Part shown: in pieces, positions 2,681 to 62,210 of the stretch
Numbering within the stretch: position 1 is the first letter of the stretch
Layout of the letters: each line of letters opens with the position of its first letter
From: Proteromonas lacertae
Taxonomy: Eukaryota
DNA: 64,000 bases
Direction: 5' to 3'
Assembly (NCBI GenBank): GCA_002245135.1
Contig: NGBS01000027.1
Location: forward strand, 1 to 64,000
Made by a program: the position numbers and the translations under genes
The notes under the pieces: model-generated
The model's database searches: none
What the model was told of the DNA's origin: nothing
The model's input: the letters and a program-made list of their open reading frames with translations, nothing else

Positions 2681-3485
2681 TTTTGATGGTTTTAAAAATT
2701 AAAGATCTTAATGTTCAGTAATGACAACACAATTGATAATTAAGGAATTAATGAATAACTATACATTCAAGAAATATTCTTTTAAATTTTTTGACGGAGT
2801 GATGATGAGGATTGATTATTAATAGCTATTATGCAAAATACATCATTTATCTTTAGGTATACATACATATTTCAGTGATTGGATGGGTTTTTATAATATT
2901 CATTTCATAAATACTGTTTAGTGAATTGATCATTAATTATTTAATACATAGTCATAGTCAAATAAGTTGTTTCAATCATGAAAATGCTTAGGAATTAGAT
3001 TTAGGGTTAATTAACTTGCAAATTATGATATTACTTACTACACTCTATTATATTTAAGTAAATACAATAATTTCTATTAAAAATAAGCCAAATAAACATA
3101 ACATCAAAAATGACAAATATTAGAATTTAGTAAATAATAAGTATAATTATTGTAAAAGCATTTATAAATATGAGTGGAACTATTAAAATACATAAAACAA
3201 TTAAATACCTCTTAACCATCGAACTGCTTGAAGGAAAGAAATGAATTGATTTTTGAAACTTTTAGGGGATTGAGATGAATCTATTTCATCAAGATTATCT
3301 AGCAAATAAAAGATAAAAAAAATAAAACATACGAGGTTTAAGAAATCTTTTCTCATGTAAAATGGCACAAGCATTGCAAAGAAGTATAAAATAGCCTAAA
3401 ATAGATGCTATTTGATTTAACATTAAGAAAAAATTAAATGAAGTATTTCAAACAAGTTTGACTTGCTTTTTAAATTTTCTTAAAA

Positions 3486-6400: not shown

Positions 6401-6797
6401 ATTATATATATATATATGTATATCAATAGAAATGAAGAATCATATTATAATAGTCGATATGATAATAATGATAAATATAAAGGAAGTGAATTACCAGTAA
6501 GTTATAAAGAGCCAAAGAAGAAAGAAACTTCATCTGATATGAGAATATCACCTCAAGAGAAAGATTATATACAACCACAAGCAGTAGGTGGTCTTAGTAA
6601 AAAGAGTATAAGTGATAAACCTAAAAGAGTATATATATTTGTTATAATAATACTTTATAAAAATAGAGAAGAAGATTAGCAACAGATAGAAGTAAGAATT
6701 CTAATAATGCTGGTTCAAATAATAATTATTTTGCCGAATTGGGAATGGAAACACAGTATATTGTTTAGATATATTATATTATCTGTATAGAGTATAG
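3486..6797 (+). CDS. Putative type I surface protein: signal peptide, Cys-rich N-domain, about 320-aa Asn-rich region, Cys-containing beta-rich domains, TM helix, cytoplasmic tail; frameshift near 3893; 3' end approximate
   Basis: ORFs 3486-3950 and 3958-6399; hydrophobic N-terminus; TM IILVSFVVGLVVVGGIFVY followed by RR; GT-AG introns extend the tail to about 6800. Confidence 0.7.
4213..5187 (+). repeat. Low-complexity coding repeat of (N)n-QV/AV/GM/GV units
   Basis: AAT/AAC runs punctuated by CAAGTA, GCTGTT and GGAATG, giving NNQV, NNAV, NNGM, NNGV. Confidence 0.9.
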
Positions 6798-7240
6798 AGG
6801 ATTGTAATAATTTTGATAAATTGAATAAACTGAAATTATTTTTATATATAACTGTTTGATTTGTTCTATCATTAAATTTGAATAGTAATTATTATAAACT
6901 ACAAGGCATTTGTTTGAAATTTTCATTTTGTGGATTTTTTGGTTGAAATTTTACATACTTCTTTTTAAGATTGCAGGATTATTATTATTTTTTGCTACTT
7001 GTTGGTATGTTTGTTTTTATTTATAATAGGGTCGAATTTTATGAATCGTTTTTTATACAGAAATTGACATTTAAGAATTCACTCTTACGTAGTTATTTTA
7101 TGTAAGCAATGTTGAGATTATTCAGATTCATAAAACATTTGACAATCATAGTAACTTTCTTTTTGTTTAAAAAAAAATCCGTTTTATGTTTTAAAAATGA
7201 TAGAAATGCTTGGCTTGACAATCAAAATAGAAATAAAGAA

Positions 7241-8265
7241 ATGTCTATATTGAGTGACAGAAATCTTATATCATCAAATAGTGTTGATAATTCGCAAACT
7301 TATGTTAATAAAGGGTATATAAACGATTTGAATAATTTGTTTAGACTTTATGAAGTTGAAAGTTTTGATAAAGTAGCTGATTTAACATTTGTATGTAACA
7401 ATGATAAATTTAAAGCAATAAGTGCAATGTTAAACTGTTATATACCATATTGGAAACGAGATCATGGAAATAGTAGTAAAAAAGTGATTGAGATGAATGA
7501 TATAGATTCCAAAGTGTTAGAATTATTTTTAATTTACATTCATTTAGGATGTGTATATGAAATATGTTTTATTTGTTGTAGATAATCTTGAAACCTGATA
7601 CTGCTGCAAAGCTATTACTATTATCCCAAAGATTAAATGTAAATAATTTATCTCAGAGTTGTCGAGATTATTTTAATGAAATAGGAAGAATAAATATAGA
7701 TAATTATAACGATCTTGTAACAGGTGCAGGATGTAAGAATAGTAAACAATTACGTGAGACATTACAAAGTTGGACAAAACACAATTTTGATAAATTGTTC
7801 AATGAAAATAATGAATTAAAATTAACCAAAGAGTCATTACTATTTGCTTTAAGAGTTCAAAGACATTGTAAACACGAGAAAAGCTGTGCATATGGAGTAA
7901 ATTCATGGTTACACAATCAATTGAAAAGTGGTAAAATCAGTAAAGATCAAATCGAAAATGATGCTTGGGATTTATATAGACATATACAGTGGAGGATGTT
8001 AGATAATGAAATAGTTGATGAATTATTTAAAGAAGATGTATTAATAAGTGCAGATAAAGTGCAATTAATAAAAGAGTATATGTGTGATAGTGATCATAAT
8101 CAAAATAGTATATTTCACTATCATGGCACAATATTTTCTGAATTTTGTAAGAAAAGCAGTAGTACGACAACAACGACAACTACTACTACCATTTCTGCAT
8201 CATCTACTGCTAATATGACTACCATAACGACAATGACAAATACATCTTCTTCAACTACTCCTTAA
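7241..8265 (+). CDS. BTB/POZ-BACK domain protein with Thr/Ser-rich tail; 1 intron (about 7553-7581)
   Basis: ADLTFVC...FKAISAML...IEMNDIDSKVLELFLIYIH then LLLLSQRLNVNNLSQSCRDY, a BTB pattern followed by BACK-like helices. Confidence 0.75.
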
Positions 8266-8338
8266 ATATAAAATTCTATTATTAATTTATGTTTTTTCTC
8301 TCTATTTTCATGTTAATAATAAAAATGATTATAGGAGG

Positions 8339-10345
8339 TGTTATTGCATGTTACTAATAAATAGTGTTCATCCTATTATCTAAAAACAATAAAATTCAAA
8401 ATAGATTCAAGCTTGACAGTATCAAACTTACTTTTCATTTTTTCATATTTATTTTCTATTTAAGAGTGATTTTATATTTCCTATTATAACAACAGTTAAA
8501 AATTAATATAAAAAAATTAAATTTAATATCTTAAATAATAATATTATATGGAAATTTACTTAATTCATAAGAATTAATTACAATTATATCATACTCAACA
8601 GATTCCTATACATTTATCGATTCTCCTAATGAAACATGATCATTTTCATTATCATCAAAACATTTTGAACTTTGACGACCTAAACTATGAATTACTTTTG
8701 TATTATAACCATTACAATAAATACATTTATGATATACAAAATGAAATTTTACTATGCTCTTCTTTTCACAGTCATTACAATATATCTCATTCTTCATATG
8801 ATTAAATTCACCGGGCAATTCTTCTTCATTCTTTAAATATTCATCGATTGTTTTATAATATTCACTTGCATCATATATGGATTTACAACATAATGGACAA
8901 ACATAATTCGTTTTCATATATTCATCTAAACATTCTTTATGGATTATATGACCACACTTCAATTGAATTATTGTCTCACGACTTTCAAATACTTCATCAA
9001 AACATATTGGACATTTGGATTTACAGTTTGATTCAATACAACTATGACATTCTTTTAATACACAACCTTCACATCGATCACAATGAATATATTTACTCTT
9101 ATCTCCTAAACGACATAAACCACATTTATCACAATGATATATTAACTTTTTATTGTCATTTTCATATAATACACATTTTTCACAGTAATAATTTCCAAAT
9201 TTTATACCACATTTTTCACATTTATTACTTATTGCACTTTGAATTGTATTACAATATAAACATCTGATTTTACTTATATTATCACTTTTACCTGGATGGT
9301 TTACACTTCCATCATGACATCGACAGCATACATACCATCGATTACAACAACTGAAGTATAATACACAGTTACGTTGGTAATGTTCACAACCATATATTTT
9401 CTTATCTTTATTATTCCAATATTCGTCATTTTCATCATCATAATCTTCTAATTCTTTTGAATTACATCGATTAGACATGTTACTGATTTGACGGTATAAT
9501 TTCGTTAAATAATCATAAACTAGACGAAAGGTCAAGATTTTCTATTTAATATTACGATATATGTACCATACTTGATTTATCTTATTCTTTTCTTCATCAC
9601 TCAATTCACTTCGTTTTTCTAAGATTCGAATTGCTTTCTCAATTATCACTTGCTAAAATGCATTAATATTCAAATTTTATACCTCAACAGCTATTTTATC
9701 TTCACCACACATGTTAGGATGCTTGGAAATAAACACTTTGTATAATTTATTCAAATGTTGCTAAAGGACAACTATAAAACAATATAAGCATACAACTAAC
9801 TTATCAGAATCATGATAACACTCAGTTGGTATGTAAATATAGTATGAATTCATTCTTCTTTAAATTCTTTTTGATAAAAAAAAGAATATTCAGTTATTTT
9901 GAATGAATGACGAATCTGGTTTCACGACGATTCATTTTAACTCGTCATTCTAGAAGTATTATACATATATGACAAAACCAATATATCTGAGTGATGTGAT
10001 ACTTGTGACAAAATGAACTGACTACACAGGTGTAGAGTAAATTAAATTCTAGACTACAAATCTATCCCTATAATTAAAACTGTAATATTTTTACATGGCA
10101 TAAAGAGACCATTATATTGTGAAATAATATTGGAGTGATAAAGCACTTCTGATTTTGAAAATGTAGTAATTTTAAAACGTCAATACATCACATTCTTAAA
10201 CATAAACTGATTAATATAATATTCGTTCATCAAATGATTTCACATAACAACACTCTGAAATAGAAGACTATCTAATAGATATTACATTATCATGACGTTT
10301 GCCATTATATCGTGATTGCGATGATGAAATTATCTTAAGCTTATA
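8339..10345. repeat. Left arm of a 2007-bp inverted duplication
   Basis: Reverse complement of 10636-12642 (coordinates sum to 20981); the match breaks at 8338/12643 and 10346/10635. Confidence 0.95.
8606..9853 (-). CDS. RCHY1: RING finger and CHY zinc finger E3 ligase (Pirh2-like), copy A; 3 small 5' introns
   Basis: YGCEHYQRNC...CCRCHD (CHY), YHCDKCGLCRLG (CTCHY), CPICFDEVFES...CGHIIHKECL...CPLC (RING-H2), IYCNDC...YHKCIYCNGYNT (zinc ribbon). Confidence 0.92.
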
Positions 10346-10635
10346 CCATAATTCAAAATATTTACTAAATGAAACTGTTATTCTTCAATAATAAATTAGA
10401 ATAACCATTTCTTTTATCGACTATTTAATTATATTACATTTTCAATGGTACACTCTATCTGTTTATCACAAAAAATACACTCAAACATTTATCAAGCTTT
10501 ATGAGATATATCGAAAATGAGATGATACATATGATTTTTAACAGTATTTGTATGATTATGGTGGTTATAAAAGCAACTATTATTTGTGTTGAATGAATAT
10601 TAGTTAATTATCACAGTGAAATGTCTGAATGAAGA

Positions 10636-12642
10636 TATAAGCTTAAGATAATTTCATCATCGCAATCACGATATAATGGCAAACGTCATGATAATGTAAT
10701 ATCTATTAGATAGTCTTCTATTTCAGAGTGTTGTTATGTGAAATCATTTGATGAACGAATATTATATTAATCAGTTTATGTTTAAGAATGTGATGTATTG
10801 ACGTTTTAAAATTACTACATTTTCAAAATCAGAAGTGCTTTATCACTCCAATATTATTTCACAATATAATGGTCTCTTTATGCCATGTAAAAATATTACA
10901 GTTTTAATTATAGGGATAGATTTGTAGTCTAGAATTTAATTTACTCTACACCTGTGTAGTCAGTTCATTTTGTCACAAGTATCACATCACTCAGATATAT
11001 TGGTTTTGTCATATATGTATAATACTTCTAGAATGACGAGTTAAAATGAATCGTCGTGAAACCAGATTCGTCATTCATTCAAAATAACTGAATATTCTTT
11101 TTTTTATCAAAAAGAATTTAAAGAAGAATGAATTCATACTATATTTACATACCAACTGAGTGTTATCATGATTCTGATAAGTTAGTTGTATGCTTATATT
11201 GTTTTATAGTTGTCCTTTAGCAACATTTGAATAAATTATACAAAGTGTTTATTTCCAAGCATCCTAACATGTGTGGTGAAGATAAAATAGCTGTTGAGGT
11301 ATAAAATTTGAATATTAATGCATTTTAGCAAGTGATAATTGAGAAAGCAATTCGAATCTTAGAAAAACGAAGTGAATTGAGTGATGAAGAAAAGAATAAG
11401 ATAAATCAAGTATGGTACATATATCGTAATATTAAATAGAAAATCTTGACCTTTCGTCTAGTTTATGATTATTTAACGAAATTATACCGTCAAATCAGTA
11501 ACATGTCTAATCGATGTAATTCAAAAGAATTAGAAGATTATGATGATGAAAATGACGAATATTGGAATAATAAAGATAAGAAAATATATGGTTGTGAACA
11601 TTACCAACGTAACTGTGTATTATACTTCAGTTGTTGTAATCGATGGTATGTATGCTGTCGATGTCATGATGGAAGTGTAAACCATCCAGGTAAAAGTGAT
11701 AATATAAGTAAAATCAGATGTTTATATTGTAATACAATTCAAAGTGCAATAAGTAATAAATGTGAAAAATGTGGTATAAAATTTGGAAATTATTACTGTG
11801 AAAAATGTGTATTATATGAAAATGACAATAAAAAGTTAATATATCATTGTGATAAATGTGGTTTATGTCGTTTAGGAGATAAGAGTAAATATATTCATTG
11901 TGATCGATGTGAAGGTTGTGTATTAAAAGAATGTCATAGTTGTATTGAATCAAACTGTAAATCCAAATGTCCAATATGTTTTGATGAAGTATTTGAAAGT
12001 CGTGAGACAATAATTCAATTGAAGTGTGGTCATATAATCCATAAAGAATGTTTAGATGAATATATGAAAACGAATTATGTTTGTCCATTATGTTGTAAAT
12101 CCATATATGATGCAAGTGAATATTATAAAACAATCGATGAATATTTAAAGAATGAAGAAGAATTGCCCGGTGAATTTAATCATATGAAGAATGAGATATA
12201 TTGTAATGACTGTGAAAAGAAGAGCATAGTAAAATTTCATTTTGTATATCATAAATGTATTTATTGTAATGGTTATAATACAAAAGTAATTCATAGTTTA
12301 GGTCGTCAAAGTTCAAAATGTTTTGATGATAATGAAAATGATCATGTTTCATTAGGAGAATCGATAAATGTATAGGAATCTGTTGAGTATGATATAATTG
12401 TAATTAATTCTTATGAATTAAGTAAATTTCCATATAATATTATTATTTAAGATATTAAATTTAATTTTTTTATATTAATTTTTAACTGTTGTTATAATAG
12501 GAAATATAAAATCACTCTTAAATAGAAAATAAATATGAAAAAATGAAAAGTAAGTTTGATACTGTCAAGCTTGAATCTATTTTGAATTTTATTGTTTTTA
12601 GATAATAGGATGAACACTATTTATTAGTAACATGCAATAACA
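10636..12642. repeat. Right arm of the 2007-bp inverted duplication (290-bp spacer 10346-10635)
   Basis: Mirror of 8339-10345; identical ORF translations. Confidence 0.95.
11128..12375 (+). CDS. RCHY1: RING finger and CHY zinc finger E3 ligase (Pirh2-like), copy B
   Basis: Same as copy A; ATG at 11128 and three GT-AG introns join in frame to the 309-aa ORF. Confidence 0.92.
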
Positions 12643-12696
12643 TTCAAATAATCAATTGTACAACAAAAAGAAAGACATAATAAGAAATGCTCAGAA

Positions 12697-15600
12697 TTAG
12701 TTATTAAAACAATTCAATTCATCAAGAAGGGAATATATCTCTTCTTCTTTATTTGGATCATCTCCTATGTATTCTTTTGCATTTTCATAACATTCTTTGG
12801 CTATTTCTTTTTCTTGCTATACAGTTATAGAATAATTATTAGAAGAATATAATATATAATATTATACACATTTAGAATAGTATTTTCCCATTACTAGATA
12901 ATAGTTATATTTTGAAATATCATCATTCATACTCTCTTTAGCTAGATTTAGATAATATAATGACTTTTCTTTATCTTTACAATATAAATAACATTCTGCT
13001 ATATTGGATTGTGCTACAGATATACAATTTTCATCTGCATATTCTAATGATAATAAACAATATTTCAATGATTCTTGATAATCTTCCTAATTCAATATAA
13101 TATTCTCATATGTATACAATACAAAAATAGCAAACACCTAAGTATTGAGCATTTGAATATTTATCTGCATCTGTTAGAGTATATTCAGATTCTGTTTTAA
13201 AGTAATGAATTGCTTCAACATATTTTTTCTATTTTGATTCAATATAATTGTTTTTATATTATACCATATCCATATAACATAAACCAATATAGCTATTATT
13301 ATTTGACATTTCTCTATTTGATGATGAATGTTCTAATGCAGTTTTAAAGTATGGAATTGCTTCTTCATAATCATTCTATTAATTATTATCTGATTGATAT
13401 ACCAAACTATAATAACACTTTCCAATACAAAAATTATTCTCTACAATCACTTCATCTGATGTGCTATTCTCTAATGCTAATTTATAATACTGAATAGCTG
13501 TTTCATAATTTCCCTATAACAGTAATTAAACATTCATTTTTATACTATTATAACATAACATAATGCAATTTTTCCATTACATGCTTCTCTATTTTCATTT
13601 GATGAACAATACTCTAATTCTGATTTATAATATTGAATAGCTTCTTCATAATCATTCTATTAATTATTATAATATATTTATTATCATACAATGTTTATGT
13701 GGCATAAGCCTAATAAATTGTTACAACTTGATGTTGCTTCGTCTGATGAAGAATACTTTAAAGCCAATTTAAAAAACTGAATTGCATCTTCAAAATCACA
13801 CTATATAACATAATTATTTATTTGATATACCATTTCAAAACAGCACATACCTAAAAAATGCATATCATTTAATATTTCTGTATTTAATGAAGTAGATTCT
13901 AATGATGATTGAGTATGTGAAATATCTTCATCAAAATTATGCTATTATTAATATTATGCAATAGTTATTATACTATTTCCTTATAACACGAAGCAATATT
14001 TTTTATATATTTTAATTTATCTTCATTAGATACAGAATTTAGTATAGCACACTTAAGATATTTAATTGCTTCTCTATAATTATTCTATTGTTATTATAAT
14101 ACAATATTGTTATACTAACTTCATATAACATAGAGCAATATTCTCATTATAACCTTTACAATCTTCTAGTGAGGTAGAACATTCTAATCTTGATTTAAGA
14201 TAAGGAATTGCTTCTTCATAATGATTCTATACATTAATAGATAAAAATTGTTATACTGAAGCCAAATAACAAATACCAATTATTCCTATGCATTTTTGTG
14301 TCTGTTCATCTGATGAAGAATATTGTAATGAATATTTAAAATATGGGATTGCTTCTTCAAATTTATCCTATTCAATTAACAACTCTATTATTTATACCAT
14401 ATTTAAATAACATATGCCAATACTATCATTAAATTCTCTTTTATCTTCATCTGATGAAGCATACTCTAATGCAGAATTATAAAAAGGAATTGCTTCTTCA
14501 TATTTTTTCTATTCATTTCTATATTTTATTAACAATACAATTTGCATTAAAACTAAACCAACATTTGCATTATTACCTACAAAATCTTCTTTTGTTGGAC
14601 AAAACTCTAAAGAAGTTGCTATATACGGAATGGCATCTTCATAATTATTCTATTCAATATTATTTACTTCACATTTATACCATTTTCAAATAACATATAC
14701 CTAGATTATTACTATTATATGATCTTTTCTCATCACAAGAACATATATCTAATGCTGATTTTATGAATGGAATAGCTTCTTCAAACTTATCCTATTTATT
14801 TGTATATATTCTAATACTTATACAATTTTCAAATAGCAACTACCAATGTTTGTATAATCCATTTCTTTATCTTCATCTGATTTACTTAACTCTAAAGCAA
14901 TCTTAAAATACGGAATTGCCTCTCCATATTTCTCCTATTCAAACCACATTTGGAATATTTATACCATTACAGAATAGCAATTACCAATCATATTATTATA
15001 TTTTGATTTTTCTTCAATTACTGTTGAATGTTCTAAAGCATTTCTAAAACATGGAATTGCCTCTTCTATATTAACTATCATATAACACATTCCCATTCTT
15101 TCATTCAATTCTGTAATACTATCATTCGATGAACAATAATCTAATGCACATTTGAAATATCTAATTGCTTCTGCATATTCACCCTATTAATAATAATAAT
15201 AATATATTATACCATTCCAGAATAACATAAACCAAGATATTTGTTATTATCAAACTTTTCATTCTTTGAGATTGAATATTCTAATGCTGATTTATAGAAT
15301 GGAATTGCTTTTTCAAACTCATTCTATTTGATGTTATTATACTTTAATTTTATACATTATTGAAATATTGACTTGCATTACTTCTGTAATATTCTTCATC
15401 CTTAACTTTAGATGAAAAGAGTTTTAAAACAGATTTAATGAAAGGATTTGTTTTTCTACTATCTCTCTTTTTATCTTCTAATGGAATAACTGGAATTTCA
15501 GATTTGACATTACTAGTAGCAATTGGAACTTTATCTTCACTTAATCCTATGGTAATACATCACAATAATATATAATTCTATACTTTTCAATTCATTCATT

Positions 15601-16402
15601 ATTTCATTCAACTCCAAACGATCTTTTTTTTCTTTAACTAGTATTTTCTTTAACAATGAGTTTAAGTTATCACTACTTTCACATTCTAATTGAATATATT
15701 TTATATTCTCAATGTTTTTCATTGTCTCAAACGTGTTTGATCCAAGAAAAGGATATTTCCCACTTTTAATATAGTAAACTACTAATCCAAAATTCCACAT
15801 GTCACTTGATATATCTAATTCTTTTCCTAATATTTCATCTATACAAACAAAACATAAAATCATTTTCATCTCTCTTTATTTTGTTTTTTCTTCCTTTATA
15901 TAATAAATTATTACAATAATCATTAATAACTACTTCATTTTCATCATTCAGAAAGATATTGGAGGGTTTTAAATCACTGTGAATTGTTCCTATTTTTTTT
16001 AGAATCTTCAACATCATCAATATTCCATTTAATACTTTAAATATACTAAAATTTTCTTTGAAATATTTGACAGGATTTATTTCAGCTAAATTCACTTTAT
16101 ACCCTTCCATTATTCGATATAATACATTTTCATCTTCCTCTATCACCTTGTATTTCATGAAACAAGATATATTCAGATAATTCACTATCTTCATTTTATT
16201 TAACACTTCAACTACTATTTTGTCATCCAACTCACTCACATCTGTCACTTTTAATAATTTTGTTGAATTGTCATCCATATCTCGAATTCTGTGAAGTTTA
16301 TTCTTCAATAAACCATCATTCAACAACTATGAAGAAATTGAGTAGAAACAAAAATTATACTTCATATCTATGTTTGGTCAACCAATTGACAAGGTTGTTC
16401 AT
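12697..16402 (-). CDS. Degenerate protein kinase domain plus about 19 TPR-like 37-aa repeats, mostly one per exon; 1-nt frameshift near 15860
   Basis: Kinase motifs HSDLKPSNIFL, INDYC (DFG position), SDMWNFG, GKYPF. Repeats of type xxYEEAIPYFKxALEYSxSxExxxxxNxxIGxCYxxM, separated by about 30-nt GT-AG introns. Stop at 12699-12697. Confidence 0.85.
13118..15323 (-). repeat. Tandem exon-intron array (about 142-bp period): 14 exons of 111 nt plus one two-repeat exon, all with phase-0 introns
   Basis: For example exons 15323-15213, 14934-14824 and 13228-13118 are each 111 nt and bounded by tag| and |gtat. Confidence 0.9.
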
Positions 16403-16895
16403 CAATTATTATCAATAATTAAGAGAATAACGCTAATAATCAAATCTTACAGTTTTTTTAATCTCAAGCTTTTGAATTTGGCTTGATTCTTTTTTTTCTT
16501 CTATTCTTTTTGTTCTTATCAATTTCATTTATAACACTAGTGAATATAACTTATAACTGAAAATCTAAAACCTTCATATGATGTGAGAAATGAAAGTAAG
16601 TTTGTATTTTTTTACTTCATTCTTAATTTTGATTATAACAATAATATATTATGCAATACCATTGATATTGAGTAATAAAATGTTTTGGTTGATAATCTAA
16701 ATAAAAGTAAAAGAAGAAAAGGATTTTTATTTTTCTAATTATTTAATTTTAAATGTAAATCAGCAAATGATTAAACTATCCAAATAGAATTTGTAAATTT
16801 TAATCTATTTCATTCTTTATATTTATAATTATTACATTATTCAATAATCTTATCACAAATTCATTACAAATAACAAATAACTAATATAATATATA

Positions 16896-18589
16896 TTATT
16901 TATTATCAACATCTTCATTTTTATTACTATCATCTTTCTCTTTATCATTTTCTTTCTCATCTTCATCATAATTAACTAACGATTTTATCTCTTTCACTTT
17001 CTCATCATATTCACTCTTCTTCTTTGCAAATTCATCCTGTACTTTATGATATACTTCCATCTCCAACTCCTTAGTTGCATTTAAATAAGCATCTTCACTA
17101 TATTGTCCATTCTCTGCTACTTCTTGATTTTGTTCACTGAGTGATTGTACATCACCAGTTATACCATATCCTTGATTAGCAGCTTCTAAATATTGTTGAT
17201 TAGTATTTGGAAAAAGTGTAGAATCATCACCATTCACTAATGGTATTTGTTTTGGAACATTATAGTTCAATGGATAATTAAATCCAGTATCTTGTAAACA
17301 AATCTGATGAGCTTGTAAACCAGCAATTACTGCATCTTGATCTGATCTTTGTACTGCTTTTCTTGCTACTGGATTTGGATCAGTGTAAGACCATCTTATA
17401 TTTAATATTTCACCTCCACCAAGATCTTGACAAGTCATAGCTACTTTGGCGAATTCTGCATTACATCTTAATCTGTATCTAACAAACGCAACCATTAATC
17501 TTTGTATAACATTGATAGATTCTAATTCACCCCATTCACCAAATTGTTCCCATAACTATTAAACAAATAAAATAAATATAAAAAGTTATACTGCTTTATC
17601 TAAATCATATCCTGGTACTCTTTTCAACCCACCAACATAAAGTGTTCTACATGGATCATCATATGCGCCAACACCTGTCATATCTTCACGATGGTCTTTA
17701 TGACGTTGTCTGCCAAAACAATCATGCATTACATCAAGCATACTATATAATAATAATAATAATAAATAAATAAAAATAGTAAAAAAAAAAGCGAAAATTT
17801 ATAATAATCATACTTGTCATCCTCTAATGTAGGTATTCGATGAAAGAATTCACAGTTTTTACCATACATACAAGCACCTCTAGCAAAATGCAAACAGAAA
17901 TATCTCTTATCTTTTTTACCATGATATTTATCTGCTTTTGTATATCCACAATCTGTTTCAGCATGACATCGTGTTTCTGCAGGTTCATCTGGTTCAAATT
18001 CATTCCAATTATCACCAATCCATCTACCATACCATATATTATACTCATTACATCCTTCTTTACGCTGATTTCCTTTACTTTCTAATTTATTCTGTTGCAC
18101 ACGTGCTGGTCGTTTTAAATATTCTAAATTCTTTGCCTCATATGTACCAGAGAGTGGATTATTAGCAGCTCCTCGACCAAACCAACCTGTGCCACTTGCT
18201 ACATCTCCCATTTCTGCTGGTCTTTGCCACTGCACTTGTCCTGTTTGAGAATTGTAGTAGTAAATGTGTAATGTCTTTGGATCAAATGCTTCTCTCCAAG
18301 GTGTTTCTTTACCAGCCTGTATATTAAAATATAATTATTCATACTAATAGATTCTTCATAGCTCCATCCATTACAATTGTGGAAGAATCTTTTGGCTTTT
18401 CAGTACTACATTGAGAACATGTGTTATGTATTGCTAAGTTTTCTGTTTTACATTTAGGACATTTCCAGTTCCTTTCATAAACTGTGAATGCAGCTCCAAC
18501 AGGACCAGCTACACCAACCTATTTATTAAATAAGTCAATAAATTACATACTGCTATTTTCTTTCGAGGTGGACCATCTTCACTATACAT
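16896..18589 (-). CDS. CWC2: Pre-mRNA splicing factor Cwc2/RBM22-like (Torus, CCCH, RRM) with N-terminal RanBP2 zinc finger and WW domain; 4 introns
   Basis: RPARVQ, EYNIWYGRW, TRCHAETDCGYTKAD, FCLHFARGACMYGKNCEFFHRIP, DCFGRQRH, RTLYVGG, AEFAKVAMTCQDL, LNIRWSYTDPNP. N-terminal WKCPKC..N....TCSQC and WREAFDPKTLHIYYYNSQTGQVQWQRP. Confidence 0.9.
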
Positions 18590-18627
18590 TTTAATCAATT
18601 ACGGTGCAAAAAAATAAATTATCGAAA

Positions 18628-19740
18628 ATGTTGTCACCCCTATTAATTAAAGAATTAGCTATTGCTAAAAGGGCAGTCCGTATTGCCTCAAAAATAGCAA
18701 TTAAAGTTCAAGTATTATATATAGAATATATTCATTGGATAGAGTAATTTAAAGAGTTGTGCTTCAATATCAAAAGAAGATAAATCACCTGTAACGGTTG
18801 CTGATTATGCAGTTCAAGCTACAATCGCATTGATCTTGAAGAATGAATATAGTGGATTTCCATTTAAGTATTATTTTAGATTATTGATAAAATTAATAGA
18901 CTTGTTGGAGAAGAAAATACAAATTTCTTAAAATCTGCAGAATATAAAAGCAAATTAAACGAAGTTACAGAATTAGTGAAAGAATTCTGTCCAATCGAAG
19001 CTCAAGACCCAGCTGAGAATAAAAACAAATGCATATCAGATGATATATTGAAAATAATAAGCGAATGTAACGATAATGGAGGAAAAGATCACTTATTTTG
19101 GTGTTTAGATCCAATTGATGGAACATGCGGTTTTTTACGAAATGGACAGTATGCAATAGGTTTATGTTTAGTAAAGAATGGAATACCAATACTTGGAGTG
19201 ATAGGTTGTCCTAATATGAATATGGGTGGATTAAAGACAGAATCCAATGTGAAATACAATACAGGAGGTAGTTTATATTATGGTGTAGAAAATAATGGAA
19301 GTTTCTTAGAAAATTTGAGTGATGAAAGTGTTGAACCAATAGAATTAAAGAAAGGAATATTAAAGAATAGAGATTATGTTACATCTGTTGAAAGTAGTCA
19401 TAGTAATGAAGAATTAGTTAGAAAGATTGCTTTAGAAAGTAATTATAAGAATGAACCGATCAAATTTGATAGTATGGTGAAATATTGTTTAGTTTGTCAT
19501 GGAGACGCTTCTTTATATCTTCGTATTGTCAAGGACAAGAATTACGTTGAACATATATGGGATCATGCCAGTGGTTATGTAATAGTGAAAGAAAGTGGTT
19601 ATAAGATTTGTGATATAAATGGCAAAGAATTAGATTTTGGTTGTGGAAGAGATTTAGTGAATAATAGAGGTATTATTTGCTGTCATAAAGATGTATTTGA
19701 TGAAGTAGTTGAAAAAGCTAAGAAATTATATAATGAATAA
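18628..19740 (+). CDS. HAL2: 3'(2'),5'-bisphosphate nucleotidase (HAL2/MET22/SAL1, inositol monophosphatase family); 2 introns
   Basis: KEDKSPVTVADYAVQA, LVGEE, WCLDPIDGTCGFLRNGQYA, SVESSHS, DSMVKY, EHIWDHASG. Confidence 0.92.
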
Positions 19741-19847
19741 GATTATCGTTATACTTTTATTATTAATTGATTATTATTTATGAAATTTGCATGTTAGAAA
19801 AACAAAAAATAAACAATACATATCAACTGTATTGTTATGTATTTTTG

Positions 19848-21322
19848 ATGTATTGTTTATTATACCTTTTTTCTCTTTATTCGTTAGTTTCATGTAACTT
19901 TAAACATAATAGTATTTATTACAGTAATGAGTTCAATAAGTATCTATCGAAATATAATACGAAGTTTCAATCGAAGGAAGAATATGAGTATAGAATAGTA
20001 ATTTATTTGTCTTAGATATAGATTGAAGATATTTAGTAGAAATTTAGATGAAATCGAAGAAGTTAATTCAAAGCACACAAATTTTCGTTTAGGATTAACT
20101 CCTTTTGTCCATCTAACAAAAGAAGAATTTAAATCAACTCACTCATCCCCTTTAAATACAAACAAGCAAACATTATCATCACTGCCATATATAACACCAC
20201 ATCTCAAATTAATGTCTTCAGAATCAGTAGATTGGAGAGCACAAGGCAAAGTATCATCAGTAAAAGACCAAGATGAATGTGGTGCATGTTATGCATTCTC
20301 AGGAGCAAGTGCAATGGAAAGCAAACATGCAATAATCAATGGAACATTATATGATTTAAGTGTTCAACAGTTAATTGATTGTTCTTATAAACAAGGATTC
20401 AATGATGGATGCAATGGTGGTAGTGCTTATTATGTATGGGAATATGCTGCAAAATATAAATATTTATGTACAGAAGATGAATATCCATATGCAAATGGTT
20501 TGAATTCAGTTTGTTATGAAAAATACTGTAAAAGGATAGAAAATATTTGCACTCACAGTGGAAGAGTAAAAAGTGATGAAAACTCATTGAAAACTATCGT
20601 TTCAGTTCAACCAGTATCTGTAGCAATAAGAAGTGACTCATTACAGTTTTATAATGGTGGTATATATGATGGAGAATGTATTGGAGATATAAACCATGCA
20701 GTATTAGTTGTTGGATATGGAAGTGATGAAAATGGAATAGATTATTGGATAATTAAGAACAGTTGGGGATTAAATTGGGGTGAAAATGGGTATTTGAGGT
20801 TGATAAGAAATGATGGAAGTAAATATGGAAGATGTGATGTAGCTAGTGAAGGATTAATACCATTAACGTATGTATTATGTATTTTAATATTATTATTTAA
20901 ATAGAAGTGGTGAATATCCAATAAAAGGAATGGATTTGAAACAATATTTATTAGTTATAGTTATTTGTATTATTGTATTATTAATATTATGTGAATGTAT
21001 ACATTGTATATGTGTTAAAGTATGTAACAGAAGAAGAAGAAGAAGAACACATGAAAATACAGTGAATATATCAACTATACCAATTATTAGAATTAATGAT
21101 AATGATAATAGTGTTTTATATGGAATAAATAATAATAATAATAATAATAATAATCCTGTTGTAGTACAACCTAATAATAATCCAAGTGTGTTTGTTACTG
21201 CTACTAGTTTTAGTGATGATGTTGTTTCTCCTAGCGATGATGCTTCTCCAAATGATGGGAAGAAAGAAGTACCAAAAATTACTACGAAATTGTTTAGTAA
21301 AGGATATAGTAAGTTAAAATAA
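19848..21322 (+). CDS. Papain-family (C1A) cathepsin L-like cysteine protease with I29 prodomain, C-terminal TM helix and cytoplasmic tail; 2 introns
   Basis: Signal peptide; ERFNIN-like EYEYR..IFSRNLDEIEEVN; VDWR, QDECGACYAFS, NHAVLVVGYG, YWIIKNSWG. Intron 20868-20904 joins in frame to the TM-containing ORF 20930-21322. Confidence 0.88.
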
Positions 21323-21581
21323 TGTTGTAATTGTTTATATTTTTTCACTTTTTTATGCTGTGTTGATTATGTAAATAGATTTTTTAATGTTTAAAAATAA
21401 TATTCGTTTCATTTTCATCTAATCGTATTTTCTTATTTTCTGATCAGTTTCTCAGTTATTCAGTGCTTTTATATCATTTATTGGAAACTATTCATATTTT
21501 AGATTGGATAAAGCAAAATATCAATCAGCAGAGCAAATTTACACAATTTTTGTAACAAATAGTATATAGGTCAATTGAAAG

Positions 21582-24500
21582 ATGAATATCTATATAAAAC
21601 CATACTCAAAGTTATTTGTTGATAATGGGAAATGCTATAAAAAGAAAATCAGCATAATAGATAAATCAAAGGAATCTATCCACAATTTTGTATATTTACT
21701 CTGAATTATTATTTATATAGATATTTTCGTTGAATAAAATTTCATATTTCTTCATTTTTAGACATTCTTTTCAAATACTTCCTTCAGAACTTACAATCAT
21801 TCTTCCTTACTATAAAAATGGTTCAATACAGAATATTATTCCCCTTCAACAAGATGAATCAACAATAATAGAAATAATAAAATCAATAACAAAACAAATA
21901 GTTCAACTTCATTCAATTTATCAATTTCATGGAAGATTGAAAAGTTCAAATATTCTAATAACAGATACAGATGAATACATTATAACAAATTATTGTGAAT
22001 ATATGATAAATGATAATAGATATAGTAATTGGAGAGATAGATTCTACGAAAGTCCTGAAGTATATAGAAATAAAGAATTAATGAATGATAAAAGTGATGT
22101 TTATAGTATTGGTGTTATATTTTATGAATTATTAAATGAAGGAGAACTTCCAATATTAGGAGTGGAAATGAAAAATAATAAATACATTTCCTTAATATGT
22201 AAATTAATAGAAAGTGATTATAGAAAGAGAATATCTGCAGTTGAATTATTAAATGAATTGAAATGTATAGAAAAAAAAAGAATAGAACAAAATAGTGATT
22301 TATTTTGTTTATTATTAAGTAATAAGTATGAATTAGAGGATAGAATTGTAGAAAAATCAATAGAATTCAATGAAAGTATATATTCTTTTATTTTATGTTT
22401 TTTTTTTTTAATAGAGAATTTAATCAGAATAACTAATGATTTAAATAATAGCGATTACAGTTTATATGCTTTTGTATTACTGAAGTTAAGTTGGAAGAAT
22501 AGTAAATGGAAAGAAATAATTGATTCTACAATAGATAGGAAAGTTAGTAGTAATGTAAAAGACTTTTATTTTTCTTCAAAAAGAAAATATGGATTGAATT
22601 TAAGTAATAAAAATAGATTATTAAATATGATGAAGAACAATACAATAAGAATCACTGAATTAAAATCAATAAATTACTATGGTTGTTTGTTACTGTTTAG
22701 TTCAAAAATATATGAACAATTTTATATATTGAGGAATTTGAAATACATTAATATGTCAAGTATATATATTTTTATTTTTATTATTATTATTATTTGATTA
22801 GAAACATCTAGCAGTTATTTATATATTACTAGATTTACTAACCAACTTCATTACTTCACACATCTTAAATCATTAAAAATATCATACAATAGAATTGATA
22901 ATAAAACATTTGGAAGAATTATGAAGAATTGTGGAATTATGAAAGAGTTGGAGATGCTTTATTTAACAGGAAATAATCTTAATAACAATTCAATTAGATG
23001 CTTCTATCATTATGCTTATAAATTTCCAAATTTGAAATTAATAGGTCTATTTAAAAATAGGAAAATTAAAATGAAAAGTGTGAAACTACTTCTGTATGAA
23101 AAGATGAAAAGAAATGAAGATTTTAATTTTATGGTTGATAGTATATATTTATATATTTTCTTAATATAACTGTTATAGTATCATCCACAGCAATATTTGA
23201 CTTGCTATATTATAATGGATATGTAATAAATAAAGGAAATGTATTTAAGTCAATCAACAGAAAGACAATTCAACATATTATAGCATTATTTAACAAAGCT
23301 GAAGATAAGAATGAATTATTCATCATTTTATATATTCTCTCATTTATAAGTGAACAAAATCTCATCTTAATTAAGCCACATGTAGAAGCATTATCTCGTT
23401 ATAGAGATTTATTCAAAGGAATAGGAAATAATGAAATGATTTATCCAAGTATAATTATATATATATTCATTTAGATACATTGATGGATAAAAAATCTTAT
23501 GATTTAATAATGACAATATGTGAAAGAGCACCAAAAATATTAAAAATGGATATGTATAATACATATATAGATGATGATACTCTTTATAAGATATTGAATA
23601 ACAAAAATATTAACAGATTAAAACATGTAAAGTATTTAGATTTTTCATGTATTTATATAATCTATATATTATTATTTGTTTTATTATTTTTGTATAGGTA
23701 ATAGACTTGGTAGAAAGAGTATCAACAAATTATTCAGTTTATTTTCCACATTTCAAAATCTGACATTCTTTGGTTTTAGTGATAATTGTATTACAAGTAA
23801 CTGTGTTGATGGATTTATTGAAAATATCCGTTATTTAATATCTATTCATCATATATTCCTTGGTAATAACAACTTTAGTGAAGAAGGTACTAACAGATTA
23901 TTACAATCATTGACTTGTTGTACAACTTTAGATACATTATCAATACAACGAAGTAATGTGACTGATAAATCTTGTAAATTACTAAACCAATTGTTGAAAA
24001 AACTGCCAATGATATATTATTTAAAATTAAATAGGAATAGAATCACTGATAAAGGGATTTATAACCTTTTCTATGGTATTACAACAGCTATTTCTTTGAA
24101 AATATTAGATTTATGTGGTATATATATATATATATATATATATCATAATATATATTTAGATAATTATATTACAGAAAATGCTTTAAAATATATGTTTTAT
24201 AATACATATCTGGATAATTTAACTGATGTTAGTCTAAGTGGAAATCCAATCAAAAGAGATGATGAATTATATCTTCATATTCTTGATTTTGATGATAAAT
24301 GTATATATATATAGTTATTCATATAAACGTAGATACTGATATTGAAGATATATTATCTGATTTTAGAGGTGAAACAAAACTTACTGTTAAGAATAATAAA
24401 GTCATATCATTATCCCCAAGTATATATATTCATACTATCTTCTATTGTATAGATTTAATACATGAATTAGTTGGATTATATAAAAGTCAAAACAGGAATG

Positions 24501-24661
24501 AAGAGTATTTCAGAATAATGACAAAAGTGATATTTGAAAATCCATACAGTTCAACAAGAAATAATTTCCTGAAAGAGTTTGACAGTAATAAAGATGAGTT
24601 TAAAATGATTGAAGGTATTATTGCTGATAATTCATTAAGTTATAACTGTATGAATATAACG

Positions 24662-24697
<36 letters not shown>

Positions 24698-26525
24698 TTT
24701 ATAGATTCAAATACTATCAGTGAAAACAATTTACCTTTTATAATGGAAACTTTAAGTTATAACACTTTTTTAACATCATTATCATTGAATTACATAAAAG
24801 TATCAGATGATTTATTCACAAAATTGGTAGTAAAATTACAAAGGATGAATAGGTTTAGAGATCTTGATATATATGGTATATAATAATTATATTGATTATG
24901 AATAGGATGTGGAATTGGAGATGAAAATGTTTCTTTACTTTTTAATTCATTATCTTCTCTAACAAGTCTTAAAACAATGTATATTAACTATAACAATTTT
25001 ACACACAATTGTATTGAAAGCTTAAGTAATTTTGAACATTTAAAGAATCTTCAGAAATTGGTAATGTCAGGTAATTATCTTGGTACAGATGCTTTAAATA
25101 TGTTGTTTATAAGTTTAACATCATTAAAAATACTTGATACAATTTGTATTAGCTGTATATTATCAACATATTTATGTATTTTTTTTAAATATATAGATTC
25201 TGGTTTTACTGATGATAATTTTGAATATTTGTCAAAGCTAATGAAAAGTCTTAAGAAACTTATATTTCTTAATTTGAGAAGTATTTTCATTCATTTATTC
25301 TATTCAATAGAAAACAGTATAACTGAAAAAGGAATTAAATATCTATTTAGTAGTTTTGATGAATTAGATGTTTTTCCTTTAAAGGAGTTATATTTATGTG
25401 ATAATAATATAAATGAAGAAGGATTATCAAGTCTTTTTGATGGAATAAACAAACATTTTAGAAATTTGAAATGTCTTTATTTAAGTGGAAATGTTGTGAA
25501 AAGAGTAAATTCTGACTTATATGAAAAGATAATCTTCTATGATAAAGATTATGTTGATGATAGGAAGATTGATGAATTATCAAACAATATAACAAGTTTA
25601 AGTTATTACCATAGCACAGCAATTGTCTATTCCCCTGAAAGATTATTGAAATGTTTATTTGAAAAGTATAATATGAAGAATTATGGAGATAATAATAAGT
25701 ATTTGTTTTTATTATTCAATGCAATTAATAAAGTCACAGAATGGAATTTTAATACTAAGTCATACATTTTGGAGTGTTTAAAACAACATGATAGAGAATT
25801 AGAGGCATTTAAAGGAGCAAATGAACATTATAAGTTGATATATGATAATCTCAGCAATGAAGGATTGATGTTTTTAGTAGAATGTGTGAAATATATTTCA
25901 GATTTGAGTATATTCAAATTGAAAAACACACATATGGATGATAAAGTGTTTATTTCATTGATAAATGAAATGAAAAGGCTAATATCGTTAAAAGAAATAG
26001 ATTTTAGTAATATAGGTGTTGGAGATGAAGGAATGGTAGAATTGTTTAAGATATTTAAGAATATCATTTCAACAAAGTATTTGAATATATCTCATAACAA
26101 ATTTACACACAAAATCATGTCAATATTCACAGAAGAAGTTTATAATCTTAATAAACTGATTAAACTTGACGTTAGTTGTATATTATATATCCTCTCACTA
26201 TCATTTTATAGATAATAATCTGCAGGTAGAAGGATGTATGTTTATACTTAATGCAATTGAATATTTACCTTTATTAAGAGAAATAAATATGAATGAAACA
26301 GGATTTTCAGATAGAAATTGTAAGAAATTGTCTGAGTTACTAAAGATTTTGGATTTGAAGAAGATTTATATAAACGACAATGAAATAACTGATGATGGAG
26401 CAGAGATTCTGTTGTATGAGATAAAGAAACATTTGTATTTGAATATATGTGAGATAAAAAACAATAAAATGAGTAAAGAATTAAGCGATGAATTTGAAGA
26501 TTATATGGAAAGAAGGATGAATTGA
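21582..26525 (+). CDS. Pseudokinase plus multiple RI-like leucine-rich-repeat blocks separated by helical segments; about 14 introns
   Basis: FHGRLKSSNILI (no catalytic Asp), ITNYC, YESPE, SDVYSIG. LRRs such as LKLNRNRITDKG, LYLCDNNINEEG and IDFSNIGVGDEG. Mostly phase-1 introns. Confidence 0.8.
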
Positions 26526-26682: not shown

Positions 26683-29389
26683 CTGGGTTCGATAAAGGGC
26701 GTCCTTTTCGAATTTTGCCCTATTTTTGCCCCTTTTTTTTTCAGCTGAAAAGAAGCCTGCCCCTTACTGCTCGGGCATAGTAATATTACCATGTGTTATG
26801 CTGTAGTATATTTTTTCTGATTTTTTGTTATAACTTTTCCATATTATCATCTAGATATACTAACATATGTTAAAAAGGATATATTATTGTGTATTATAGC
26901 ATAATAGTCATCTACTTTTCTTATGATTATATAATATCATATGTTTATGCATATATACTAATTATATAGAATATACATACTGTATATCATATTCTGATAT
27001 GCATATATATACATTATGTACATTTCAAGGTGATTGACGTCACTGAACATAAATGAAATTTATATAATAAATAATTTTGTATATTACACATATATCATAT
27101 AGATAATTAAGAAGTATAGCTATAGAATGGGTATTTTCAGTTAATTGATAATCAATAGTACTTGTTATGATAATAACATAATATATTTCATAAACTAATA
27201 GAAAAACTATTTCAAAATTACTATTTAGTATATTTTGCATACTACTTAATGTATTTCAAGCAATTATTTGAATACTTAGAAAATGGTTTGAGAATTTCGA
27301 GCTATCATTTTGCATTTCAATTGTATATGGGTAAAACGAGAGATGCTGTGTATAGATACTTTAATGAAGATGTGGTGTTAAAGAAACCCCTTGAAAAATA
27401 CAACAGAATTCAATGCAGAAGGTGCAAGGCAATGATTATTGCTCATTGCACTAATTTGAAACGTCATTACAAAAAGTATAAATATATTTATTATATTTAT
27501 TAAATTAGATGTAGTGAAAAGCTAATCCAATCAAAACTTACATAATTGAGATATGATGAACGTGCAATAAACTTAATGGTGACCAAATATCTTATAGAAA
27601 ATAACTTAGCTTTCAGAACCATACAATCTAAATCCTTTAAAAATCTAATATATACATTAAATCCAACTACAAAGTCAATAACAATAAACAAAATAAAAGC
27701 ATCAATGAACGAAGAAGCAGAAAGAATAGTAAAGGAAATTGTAGATAACAGTAAAATATGTATAATTGTGGACGCTTGGAAATCAGTAACCAATGAAAAC
27801 GTTATTAATTTGGCAATAAAGAAAAGCAGTGATATTTCGTTTTTGGAATCCATTTATTTACATAAACGAGAAACATCAGAAAATATAGTGGAATTAATAA
27901 TTCAAACATTAGTGAAGTATAAACTAGATATTAAAAACATTGTTGCTGTGAGTAGTGATAACAACTACACCATGAAAAAGATAAGTAGTATTTTAGAGAA
28001 AAAAATAAATAGACCTGTAGTAAAGTTTGGATGTTTAGCACACATCCTAAACTTAATCAGTAAAAAAGTATTCGAAATAGAGAAATACAAAAAAGTGATA
28101 GTCATGTGTAATGACATTATTCATAAGTTAAATAATAATCAAAAGATTAGAGAAACTATATATTCAATTATACAAAAAAAATATCCAAATACGCAAGGGT
28201 TGTGATACGAGATGGTCAAGCTATAGCGATGTATTTAGAAAAATATTACTCAATAAAGAAATTTTATTACAGATAAAATTATTAAAGGAAGAAGATATAC
28301 AAGAAATTAAAGAATGCTACAAGATTGCAAAATATATTTCCACAAATATACACTTATTATGCAAAGATTCATCTACATTAAATGATGGTTTCAGAATATT
28401 GACCAAAATTAAAAGAAAGTTAATGAAAAGGTCATCAAGTGAAAAAGAACTTATTAAAGACATTATAAAAAAAGAGACTAGACATGCAAACTACAGCATT
28501 TTAGCTCTATATGAATTTTTAGACATAAACAGTAAACATAAATTTTCAGACATGGAGAAGGATAATATAAAAAGATATATATTATCTAAATTCAGCCCTA
28601 TTTTAAATCAGAAAGCATTAAATGAGATTTATCATTTTGAAAGAAGAAAACCATACTGCAAAAAGTGCCCTTCAGATATATTTTCGAAAAAGATATCAAC
28701 TAATATATGGTACAATATGTATGGAGTTTTTTACCCAAATGTTAAGAAGCTATATGATATTCTTTCAACTATTCCTGTCACAAGCTCATTTATTGAACGT
28801 TCATTTAGTATTGAGGGAATAGTTCATAATCATATTAGAAATAAATTACAGCTTAATACTATAAATAATATTTTAAGAATAAAATATGATTTATTAAAAG
28901 AAAAAAACAAAGAAAAAGATATAAATGAAGATGATAATGATATTAGTGAAGAAGAATATAATTTAGATGTGCTGAATGAAATTGATAACAATATAGTATA
29001 TGACACTTTAGATTATCAATGTTCTGGTGATGAAGATGAAAGTTCTGGTAGTTCTAGCGATGAAGGTTTAAGTGATGAAAGTTCTAGTGATGAAGGTTTT
29101 AGTGATGAAGGATCTCAAAGCCCTTACTTTTAAGGCTATTATTATAATGAAATATTATTGTTTGTTATTGTTATAAGATAATAATACATAATTATGAAAA
29201 GAATAAATATTTTTATAGCGTTTAATATCCCTAAAATCGCACAAAATATAAAAATTCAAATAAAATAATTGAAAAGGGCAAATTGTACCCTTTTCTATTT
29301 TTAGATAGTATAAAGGACGCCCCTTTCAATTTTTGCCCGGGACATGCCCTTGTCCCGCCACTGCCCTGTCCCTTTATTATTCAACCCAG
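26683..29389 (+). mobile_element. hAT-superfamily DNA transposon, copy 1 (2707 bp), 8-bp TSD GTTCATTG
   Basis: TSD at 26675-26682 and 29390-29397; imperfect TIR CTGGGTT(CG/GA)ATAA; GC-rich TGCCC/GGGCA subterminal motifs; transposase inside. Confidence 0.95.
27327..29133 (+). pseudogene. hAT transposase (BED finger, DDE, dimerization domain), intron 27476-27508; nonsense TAA at 27543 and +1 A frameshift near 28180
   Basis: CRRC...NLKRHYKK-C; IVDAW; SDN; CLAHILNL; CDTRW; SSFIERSFS. Confidence 0.9.
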
Positions 29390-61778: not shown

Positions 61779-62210
61779 CTCAAAAATGATTGAATGAAAC
61801 GGATAATTTTTTACTTAATTTGAAAATAAAAATATGAAGTATGTAAACATTAGAATAGAATAAAACTACCATTAAATGTTTTTTGAATTACAGTTATGGT
61901 GTTATTGATGAAAATAATTATTTATTCATAATATAGAAGTGAAATAAGTATTAAAATGCTATAAATACTTTATATATGCATTAATTGATGTGTTTTATAT
62001 ATTATATTCATTGTGCACAAATAAAATAAAAAAATGCACAATTAAAATATATCGGATATTCTATACATCATCATTCACTATATTCATGCTCACTTTATAC
62101 GTTTCATATTTTCATTAATCTATATGATATCTTATTCTTATTTTATTCAGTGTAACTGATTTGAAACGAATCTATTTCTATATTTATACCAAAATCAATA
62201 TTTTGCTGAA

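Follow-up and report, generated by a model that had tools for sequence, protein, structure and literature searches.

Does a single family of kinase-like domains lie behind two genes of Proteromonas lacertae that end in unrelated repeats? The question arises from positions 1 to 64,000 of contig NGBS01000027.1 (GenBank assembly GCA_002245135.1), a 64-kb stretch of DNA hereafter called the window. Here, gene A joins a degenerate kinase head to tetratricopeptide repeats (TPRs), and gene B joins another such head to leucine-rich repeats (LRRs) of the ribonuclease inhibitor (RI) type. A sequence-only reading of this DNA had proposed that the two genes represent an effector-plus-swappable-sensor family resembling nucleotide-binding, leucine-rich repeat receptors (NLRs) in function. 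Our analysis supports the placement of both heads, on the basis of their sequences, in one expanded clade of degenerate kinases. We consider it somewhat probable (roughly 55%) that the two genes belong to a lineage-specific expanded family of degenerate, mostly dead kinase heads mounted on TPR or LRR solenoids, which are likely to act as cytosolic binding scaffolds or switches.

Gene models, including their N-terminal exons, were predicted from splice signals, open frames and homologs. The window is eukaryotic sequence of 26% GC, read here with the standard code, and its introns are short (GTA...TAG, mostly 26-50 nucleotides [nt]). Introns of Blastocystis are reported to peak at 30 nt (PMC5608401), and for its tortoise isolates a GC content of 21-23% with canonical stops is reported (PMC12129017). 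The two genes and their heads are as follows:

16402-12697, minus strand: gene A, modelled as a short first exon, kinase head, linker exon and TPR array.
15584..16402, minus strand: kinase head of gene A, about 260 amino acids (aa), with a Pfam Pkinase match.
21582-26525, plus strand: gene B, modelled as 15 exons that encode about 1,472 aa and are free of internal stops.
21582..22281, plus strand: pseudokinase head of gene B, with a Pfam Pkinase match; its start is uncertain and an extra 5′ exon is possible.

The heads are much as the sequence-only reading had described them. Each is a kinase domain without a Gly-rich loop that carries xYC at the DFG position, VINDYC in head A and IITNYC in head B, and their catalytic loops differ as had been noticed (HSDLKPSN versus HGRLKSSN). 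The GxGxxG loop is absent from both modelled N-lobes and from P0004 and P0110, the relatives in which this lobe is visible, and structure models of head B and P0016 agree with the bilobal kinase fold, for which Foldseek also returns kinases. Head A contains one 34-nt phase-0 intron (16360-16327) and ends at a phase-1 intron. It has Val at the αC Glu register and IDE in place of APE, and all three residues by which pseudokinases are judged (the VAIK Lys, here on β3, the HRD Asp and the DFG Asp) are present. With Lys, HxD, Asn and the DFG Asp retained, head A may have kept weak activity. Head B, which has Phe at the αC Glu position, has lost both catalytic aspartates, because HGR and NYC replace the Asp-bearing motifs. 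It thus shows the loss of the VAIK Lys, HRD Asp or DFG Asp that marks a pseudokinase and, judged from these motifs, cannot be a standard kinase.

Relatives were sought by a phmmer search with head B alone against 1.84 billion representatives, and the best 150 of 2,078 matches were inspected. These were mostly generic kinases, together with 17 short fragments, picked by eye for degenerate motifs, that carry HG[RN][LI]KPSN-like and [DN]Y[CFS]-like sequences. Relatives from the protein searches that were used as family rows bear P numbers. Nine of the 17 fragments were looked up and are Logan records, which are assemblies of sequencing runs. Many of the fragments run into intron-like sequence at their ends and so resemble single-exon open reading frames (ORFs). 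P0118, which has DYC but is a plant protein, was removed from the family, and ESM Atlas returned generic kinase and LRR clusters only. Head B is 68% identical to P0006 and 70% identical to P0155. Head A is 56% identical to P0003 over 171 columns, and P0003/P0004 is the only relative that was found for it.

Three comparisons tie the two heads together. First, with P0003 and head A kept out of the family profile, they still take the top two places among 237 non-training kinase domains (131.9 and 127.0 bits, respectively), albeit by a small margin over the next (122.7 bits). Second, after P0003, the six best matches of head A among 255 domains are family members that had been found with head B; furthermore, when each of the 20 members is left out of the profile in turn, 15 score above every one of the 235 generic kinase domains. 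Third, a tree (LG+G4) of 20 family rows and 60 generic rows (the 25 top-scoring, 20 most AT-rich and 15 random of the 235) places the 20 family rows in one clade with 100/97 support and the 20 AT-rich unrelated kinases outside it. A stricter tree was computed under LG+C20 after the columns of the catalytic loop, DFG and activation segment had been taken out; P0057 and P0129 were omitted, and seven unrelated degenerate kinases were added. In this tree, 16 of 18 family rows, including both window heads, group at 99/97, and the seven degenerate controls fall outside. An approximately unbiased (AU) test rejects the forced grouping of A-type heads with NEK-like kinases (p-AU 0.017) or with bacterial kinases (p-AU 0.030). 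The sequence-only reading would have been undone had the two domains belonged to separate kinase families, and the trees do not place them so.

Perhaps the heads are instead unrelated, fast-evolving kinases that long branches and AT-driven composition have joined, with xYC arising convergently. Low direct identity between the heads and small profile-score margins speak for such an artefact, and xYC-like motifs are also present among the head B matches in unrelated kinases (plant, animal-type and bacterial-type). However, the clade survives both the removal of the motif columns and the use of a mixture model, the convergently degenerate controls and the AT-rich ordinary kinases stay outside it, and the six best matches of head A after P0003 are family members found with head B. 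We regard this explanation as very improbable.

Several observations nevertheless weigh against the family as we describe it. Heads A and B share 31% identity over 49 residues. Five of the 20 members fail to outscore all 235 generic kinases in the leave-one-out comparison, the bootstrap of the first tree was unsettled, and P0095 and P0104 fall just outside the core clade in the stricter tree. All family rows are long-branched and AT-rich, and the ordinary-kinase controls all come from other organisms. The groups compared in the AU test were named after a tree had been viewed. The splicing of both genes is modelled; eight of the gene B introns are forced by frame or stops, and the other six of 14 are in-frame and were picked by splice-site appearance. 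Gene A bears a frameshift. Finally, because the relatives are single-exon fragments, complete tails are known only for genes A and B.

Among known kinases, the best single-domain match of the family profile in the PDB is NEK1 (117.5 bits), narrowly over PDK1 (114.2 bits), and the family clade does not join NEK-like rows in either tree. Kinship with RIPK1, which supplied the top Foldseek matches, was not accepted because identity is 22% and sequence profiles favor NEK/PDK1/CDPK.

The clade as a whole is strongly degenerate. DFG occurs in none of the 20 family rows (DYC in eight, NYC in four, DYF in three, DQC in two, and DYN, DYS and DCS in one each), and the catalytic Asp is missing in 18 of 20, being kept only in head A and P0003. 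By the same residue losses, 18 of the 20 rows are pseudokinases. An enzymatic "effector" role for the head is unlikely given that so few rows keep the catalytic Asp. Of the original proposal, one expanded clade with two tail types is supported, and an enzymatic effector and frequent swapping are not.

The evidence on tails begins with gene B, whose head is followed by these features:

22282..22759, plus strand: helical cap domain and first LRR, common to other family members; a similar cap precedes the second LRR block.
22802..26525, plus strand: four blocks of 28-residue RI-type LRRs with helical spacers between them (Pfam LRR and PDB matches).

The assignment of TPRs to one gene and RI-type LRRs to the other is borne out by our searches. 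TPR units of gene A match Pfam TPR_1, and LRR exons of gene B match Pfam LRR models, one of them matching ribonuclease inhibitor in the PDB with E 9e-16 and NLR-family chains more weakly. The helical region after kinase B yields a low-confidence structure model (predicted local distance difference test [pLDDT] scores of about 50-66). Self-BLAST of gene B detected no internal repeat, and its spacers 2 and 3 show weak mutual similarity. Of the 14 introns of gene B, only the first is in phase 0; the following 13 are all in phase 1, and many of them interrupt the LRR at one and the same position. Exon sizes include 84, 171, 249 and 420 nt, such that one repeat per symmetric exon holds in part.

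By alignment, a helical cap follows the kinase in eight of the 20 rows (head B, P0155, P0013, P0016, P0026, P0057, P0085 and P0105), and P0085 and P0105 continue into an LRR-like start that has no Pfam LRR match. A cap profile made from six members, with gene B and its counterpart excluded, scores 12.3 and 7.5 bits on the first two cap regions of gene B (best of 200 shuffles, 6.3 bits) and finds zero matches on the tail of gene A. Because this profile matches gene B and not the gene A tail, the clade carries at least two tail types, cap-plus-LRR and TPR. The eight cap-bearing rows sit in one 10-row subclade of the first tree (92/90), which the stricter tree recovers partly. Tails therefore appear to follow subclades in part, and that they are "swappable" is weakly shown by these sequences. 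Gene A alone is seen to carry a TPR tail. No full-length relative emerged from the head B search, which gave two bacterial-type generic proteins, nor, by name or Pfam, from the best 120 of 943 matches to the family profile, and two Joint Genome Institute (JGI) metagenome scans returned no relative.

In several other members, the sequence breaks off directly behind the last kinase helix, and the read-through residues there are those of gene A; this suggests that the head ends at a phase-1 intron common to these genes. The history of the family would include at least one tail exchange, probably aided by this intron. Residues 240-290 of P0003 form a tail unlike the gene A linker, with no match to it, and may reflect a second tail exchange or mere linker divergence.

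Beyond the head, gene A has the following features:

15356..15546, minus strand: linker exon of 191 nt, phase 1 in and phase 0 out, which joins the kinase head to the TPR cassettes (modelled).
12697..15323, minus strand: TPR array of about 18 units (model, unit profile and Pfam TPR_1).

The linker exon has no Pfam match. Fourteen exons of the array measure exactly 111 nt and encode one 37-aa unit each; two 219-nt exons (two units each) and a terminal exon complete it, and 17 consecutive phase-0 introns of 27-51 nt precede these exons. By the TPR consensus, the exon boundary separates the two helices of the canonical repeat. All 17 TPR introns are thus phase 0, and all 13 introns of gene B after the kinase are phase 1. 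By comparison, six other gene stretches in the window hold 13 introns, of which six are phase 0, one is phase 1 and six are phase 2; ten such stretches were tried and four yielded no model. We propose that both arrays expanded as exon-plus-intron units of matching phase were duplicated, TPR units in phase 0 and LRR units in phase 1. Two-exon-plus-intron blocks of the TPR array align at 73-76%, which is consistent with growth by unit duplication. The TPR exons share 50-76% nucleotide and 16-54% amino-acid identity pairwise and, by these values, are old duplicates.

Might these repeats be diversifying sensors? In this alternative, the genes would encode NLR-like immune sensors without an NTPase. 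Their variable repeats would recognize molecules of bacteria, phages or giant viruses, or host proteins that have been tampered with; the pseudokinase head would pass the signal on, and shuffling of exon cassettes would diversify recognition. Several features of the locus suit it. Gene B LRRs resemble those of RI and NLRs, and the family is expanded and divergent, with one member that has a possible lesion. The most variable positions of the TPR unit are 24, 25, 28, 35 and 36, which presumably lie on the helix lining the TPR groove (again by the consensus), and at several groove positions the proportion of nonsynonymous differences (pN) exceeds that of synonymous differences (pS), with per-site values near saturation. 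However, variation at groove residues is usual in TPRs of any kind, the framework positions of the unit are conserved with low pN at their codons, and overall pN (0.39) is below pS (0.47), again near saturation per site. The age of the TPR duplicates also speaks against this alternative, as does the separation of genes A and B, which are not in tandem and have three unrelated genes between them. Gene B moreover appears to be stable, given that a counterpart with 68-70% identity exists elsewhere.

Comparison with other systems bears on the same alternative. NLRs of the NOD2/NLRP type likewise place RI-type LRRs after helical domains and are cytosolic, and the C-terminal superstructure-forming repeats of NLRs are present here. 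The central nucleoside triphosphatase (NACHT/NB-ARC) of the STAND class (signal transduction ATPases with numerous domains) is not: as the sequence-only reading had noted, neither NACHT nor NB-ARC is found by Pfam in the exons scanned, and neither model contains a Walker A motif. Supplement S5 of PMC12129017 (InterPro table) has no NACHT row and gives an NB-ARC count of 0 in eight Blastocystis genomes, such that canonical NLRs may be absent here if the organism groups with Blastocystis. The NB-ARC-TPR, ROCO-LRR and LRR-kinase genes of the stramenopile Ectocarpus, proposed as immune receptors, also set repeats on a signaling domain with one repeat per exon (PMC3341825). One repeat per symmetric exon describes gene A as well, in which all 14 of the 111-nt exons are phase 0, and gene B in part. 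In contrast to the Ectocarpus genes, genes A and B have no NB-ARC or ROC domain, their TPR exons encode 37 aa rather than 42 aa, and recent shuffling is not seen: a unit-profile search found no stray, orphan, inverted or inactivated TPR exon in the 64-kb window, and the highest exon identity is 76%. We find the immune-sensor interpretation doubtful.

A scaffold or switch remains our preferred reading. As the sequence-only reading had noted, no signal peptide or transmembrane segment is apparent in either gene. This negative comes from a hydropathy scan, with no dedicated predictor, in which the highest 19-residue values are 1.27 for the gene A model and 2.01 for the gene B model, the latter inside a helical spacer. 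TPRs and LRRs bind proteins on their concave face. On this view, the repeats would capture a partner protein, and the head, with its kinase fold, would offer a docking site or act as a nucleotide-dependent switch without working as an enzyme. Perhaps head and tail engage in autoinhibition of the kind seen in plant brassinosteroid signaling kinases (BSKs), with the partner released on binding or phosphorylation.

BSKs belong to the receptor-like kinase/tyrosine kinase-like (RLK/TKL) lineage, and our trees held none. Their TPR-kinase autoinhibition and scaffolding have been described, and like gene A they combine an N-terminal kinase or pseudokinase with C-terminal TPRs and no transmembrane segment (PMC9208177). 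However, BSKs (receptor-like cytoplasmic kinase family XII, RLCK-XII) have 2-3 TPRs and a myristoylation site, whereas gene A has about 18 units of 37 residues and no N-terminal Gly in its model, and on these two counts it is not a BSK.

The expanded Neks of Giardia offer another parallel. Of 198 Neks, 71% are without catalytic residues and 133 carry ankyrin repeats, and the group resembles the window family in being a lineage-specific expansion in a gut protist with an N-terminal kinase, a variable repeat array, very divergent heads and a cytosolic location (PMC3218828). In the window family, by contrast, the repeats are TPRs or RI-type LRRs, two unrelated types occur on one head clade, and exons encode the cassettes. 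In addition, grouping of A-type heads with NEK-like rows was rejected, and the lead of NEK1 over PDK1 is narrow. Blastocystis likewise has lineage-specific kinase clades, with 58 STE20/7 kinases in subtype ST1 and a CAMKL clade in ST4/ST7; compared by description, these differ in that the kinome section of PMC5608401 mentions neither motif loss nor repeat tails. Other protist repeat genes share a gene build of uniform exons and a single intron phase. Those genes number in the thousands and are young, with phase-2 introns and LINE (long interspersed nuclear element) association, whereas the window genes use phase 1 (LRR) or phase 0 (TPR) and are old duplicates.

The frameshift in gene A raises a further alternative. 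It is placed as follows:

15856..15859, minus strand: frameshift inside a homopolymer run of four bases, which falls in the kinase A activation segment; P0003/P0004 read straight through that segment.

Identity to P0003/P0004 is 47% before the frame change and 64% after it. A 76-nt intron that would skip the activation segment was considered and rejected, because P0003 conservation runs through this segment. The frameshift may be an assembly error or mark a young pseudogene, and an assembly error is plausible because the rest of gene A is intact over about 1,000 codons. In a largely neutral birth-and-death process, a repeat-prone genome would spawn kinase-repeat fusions, gene A would be a young pseudogene, and many members would have no selected function. 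The frameshift agrees with this, as do the high divergence of members and the positions of the genes, given that gene A ends next to a 2-kb inverted duplication and gene B next to a transposon. However, the frameshift is the sole lesion in gene A, whose exon lengths and splice sites are intact, gene B is open across 1,472 codons, TPR framework codons have low pN, and both heads have conserved counterparts elsewhere. We consider neutral turnover improbable.

The surroundings of the two genes are as follows. Between them (16896-21322) lie what we take by eye to be a WW/CCCH RNA-binding protein, an inositol-monophosphatase-family enzyme and a papain-family cysteine protease with a C-terminal hydrophobic segment. 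The inverted duplication is 2,030 bp long (8326-10355 and 10626-12654; 99.66% identical, 270-bp spacer), lies 43 bp from the gene A stop, and contains a Cys/His-rich zinc-finger ORF, RCHY1/Pirh2-like by eye, in both copies. The duplication may be a true palindrome or may stem from a fold-back error in assembly. The transposon, which begins 158 bp after gene B, is one of two hAT-like DUF659 copies (26683-29389, plus strand; 57963-60693, minus strand) with short terminal inverted repeats. It appears to have been recently mobile, because the copies are 98.2% identical and each has a different 8-bp target-site duplication. DUF659, found here by a Pfam scan, is listed solely for tortoise isolates and Proteromonas in supplement S5 of PMC12129017; together with the intron size, GC content and standard stops, it points to a Blastocystis/Proteromonas-like stramenopile.

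The nearby BTB-Ig-SPRY gene of the sequence-only reading proved to be a partial match to its description. This gene (62200-64000, plus strand), which runs off the window end, has a BTB domain (E 7e-5), a helical region and a weak He_PIG Ig match below cut-off (E 0.008); SPRY is not found, and the gene lies about 36 kb after gene B. A second BTB-like gene (7106-8265, plus strand) has a weak BACK match below cut-off (E 0.002). A long Asn-rich low-complexity protein (3474-6700, plus strand) is possibly secreted or surface-exposed, as judged by eye.

Dead-kinase-plus-repeat expansions and one-repeat-per-exon arrays are each known separately. We found no published description of one degenerate head clade that carries both TPR cassettes and RI-type LRRs, although few subscription papers were reachable, and the literature search found no published account of RI exon duplication. 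What emerges is a defined, apparently unnamed pseudokinase clade that joins two unrelated repeat types, with its TPRs built as precise exon cassettes. Supplement S5 of PMC12129017 gives 1,100 kinase-domain proteins and 727 with LRR-superfamily matches in P. lacertae, compared with 130-330 and 53-404 in eight Blastocystis genomes, and the family may be a partial source of these P. lacertae counts.

The parallel with the unexplained Nek-ankyrin expansion of Giardia suggests that gut protists have repeatedly evolved dead-kinase-plus-repeat scaffolds. It is tempting, if rather unlikely, to suppose that an NLR-less gut protist lineage built intracellular receptors from one dead-kinase head, a phase-1 intron socket and exon-cassette TPR or LRR sensors, and thereby an NTPase-free NLR analogue in a unicellular stramenopile. 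Should the repeats turn out to be sensors that diversify, innate recognition in NLR-less unicellular eukaryotes would become directly testable.

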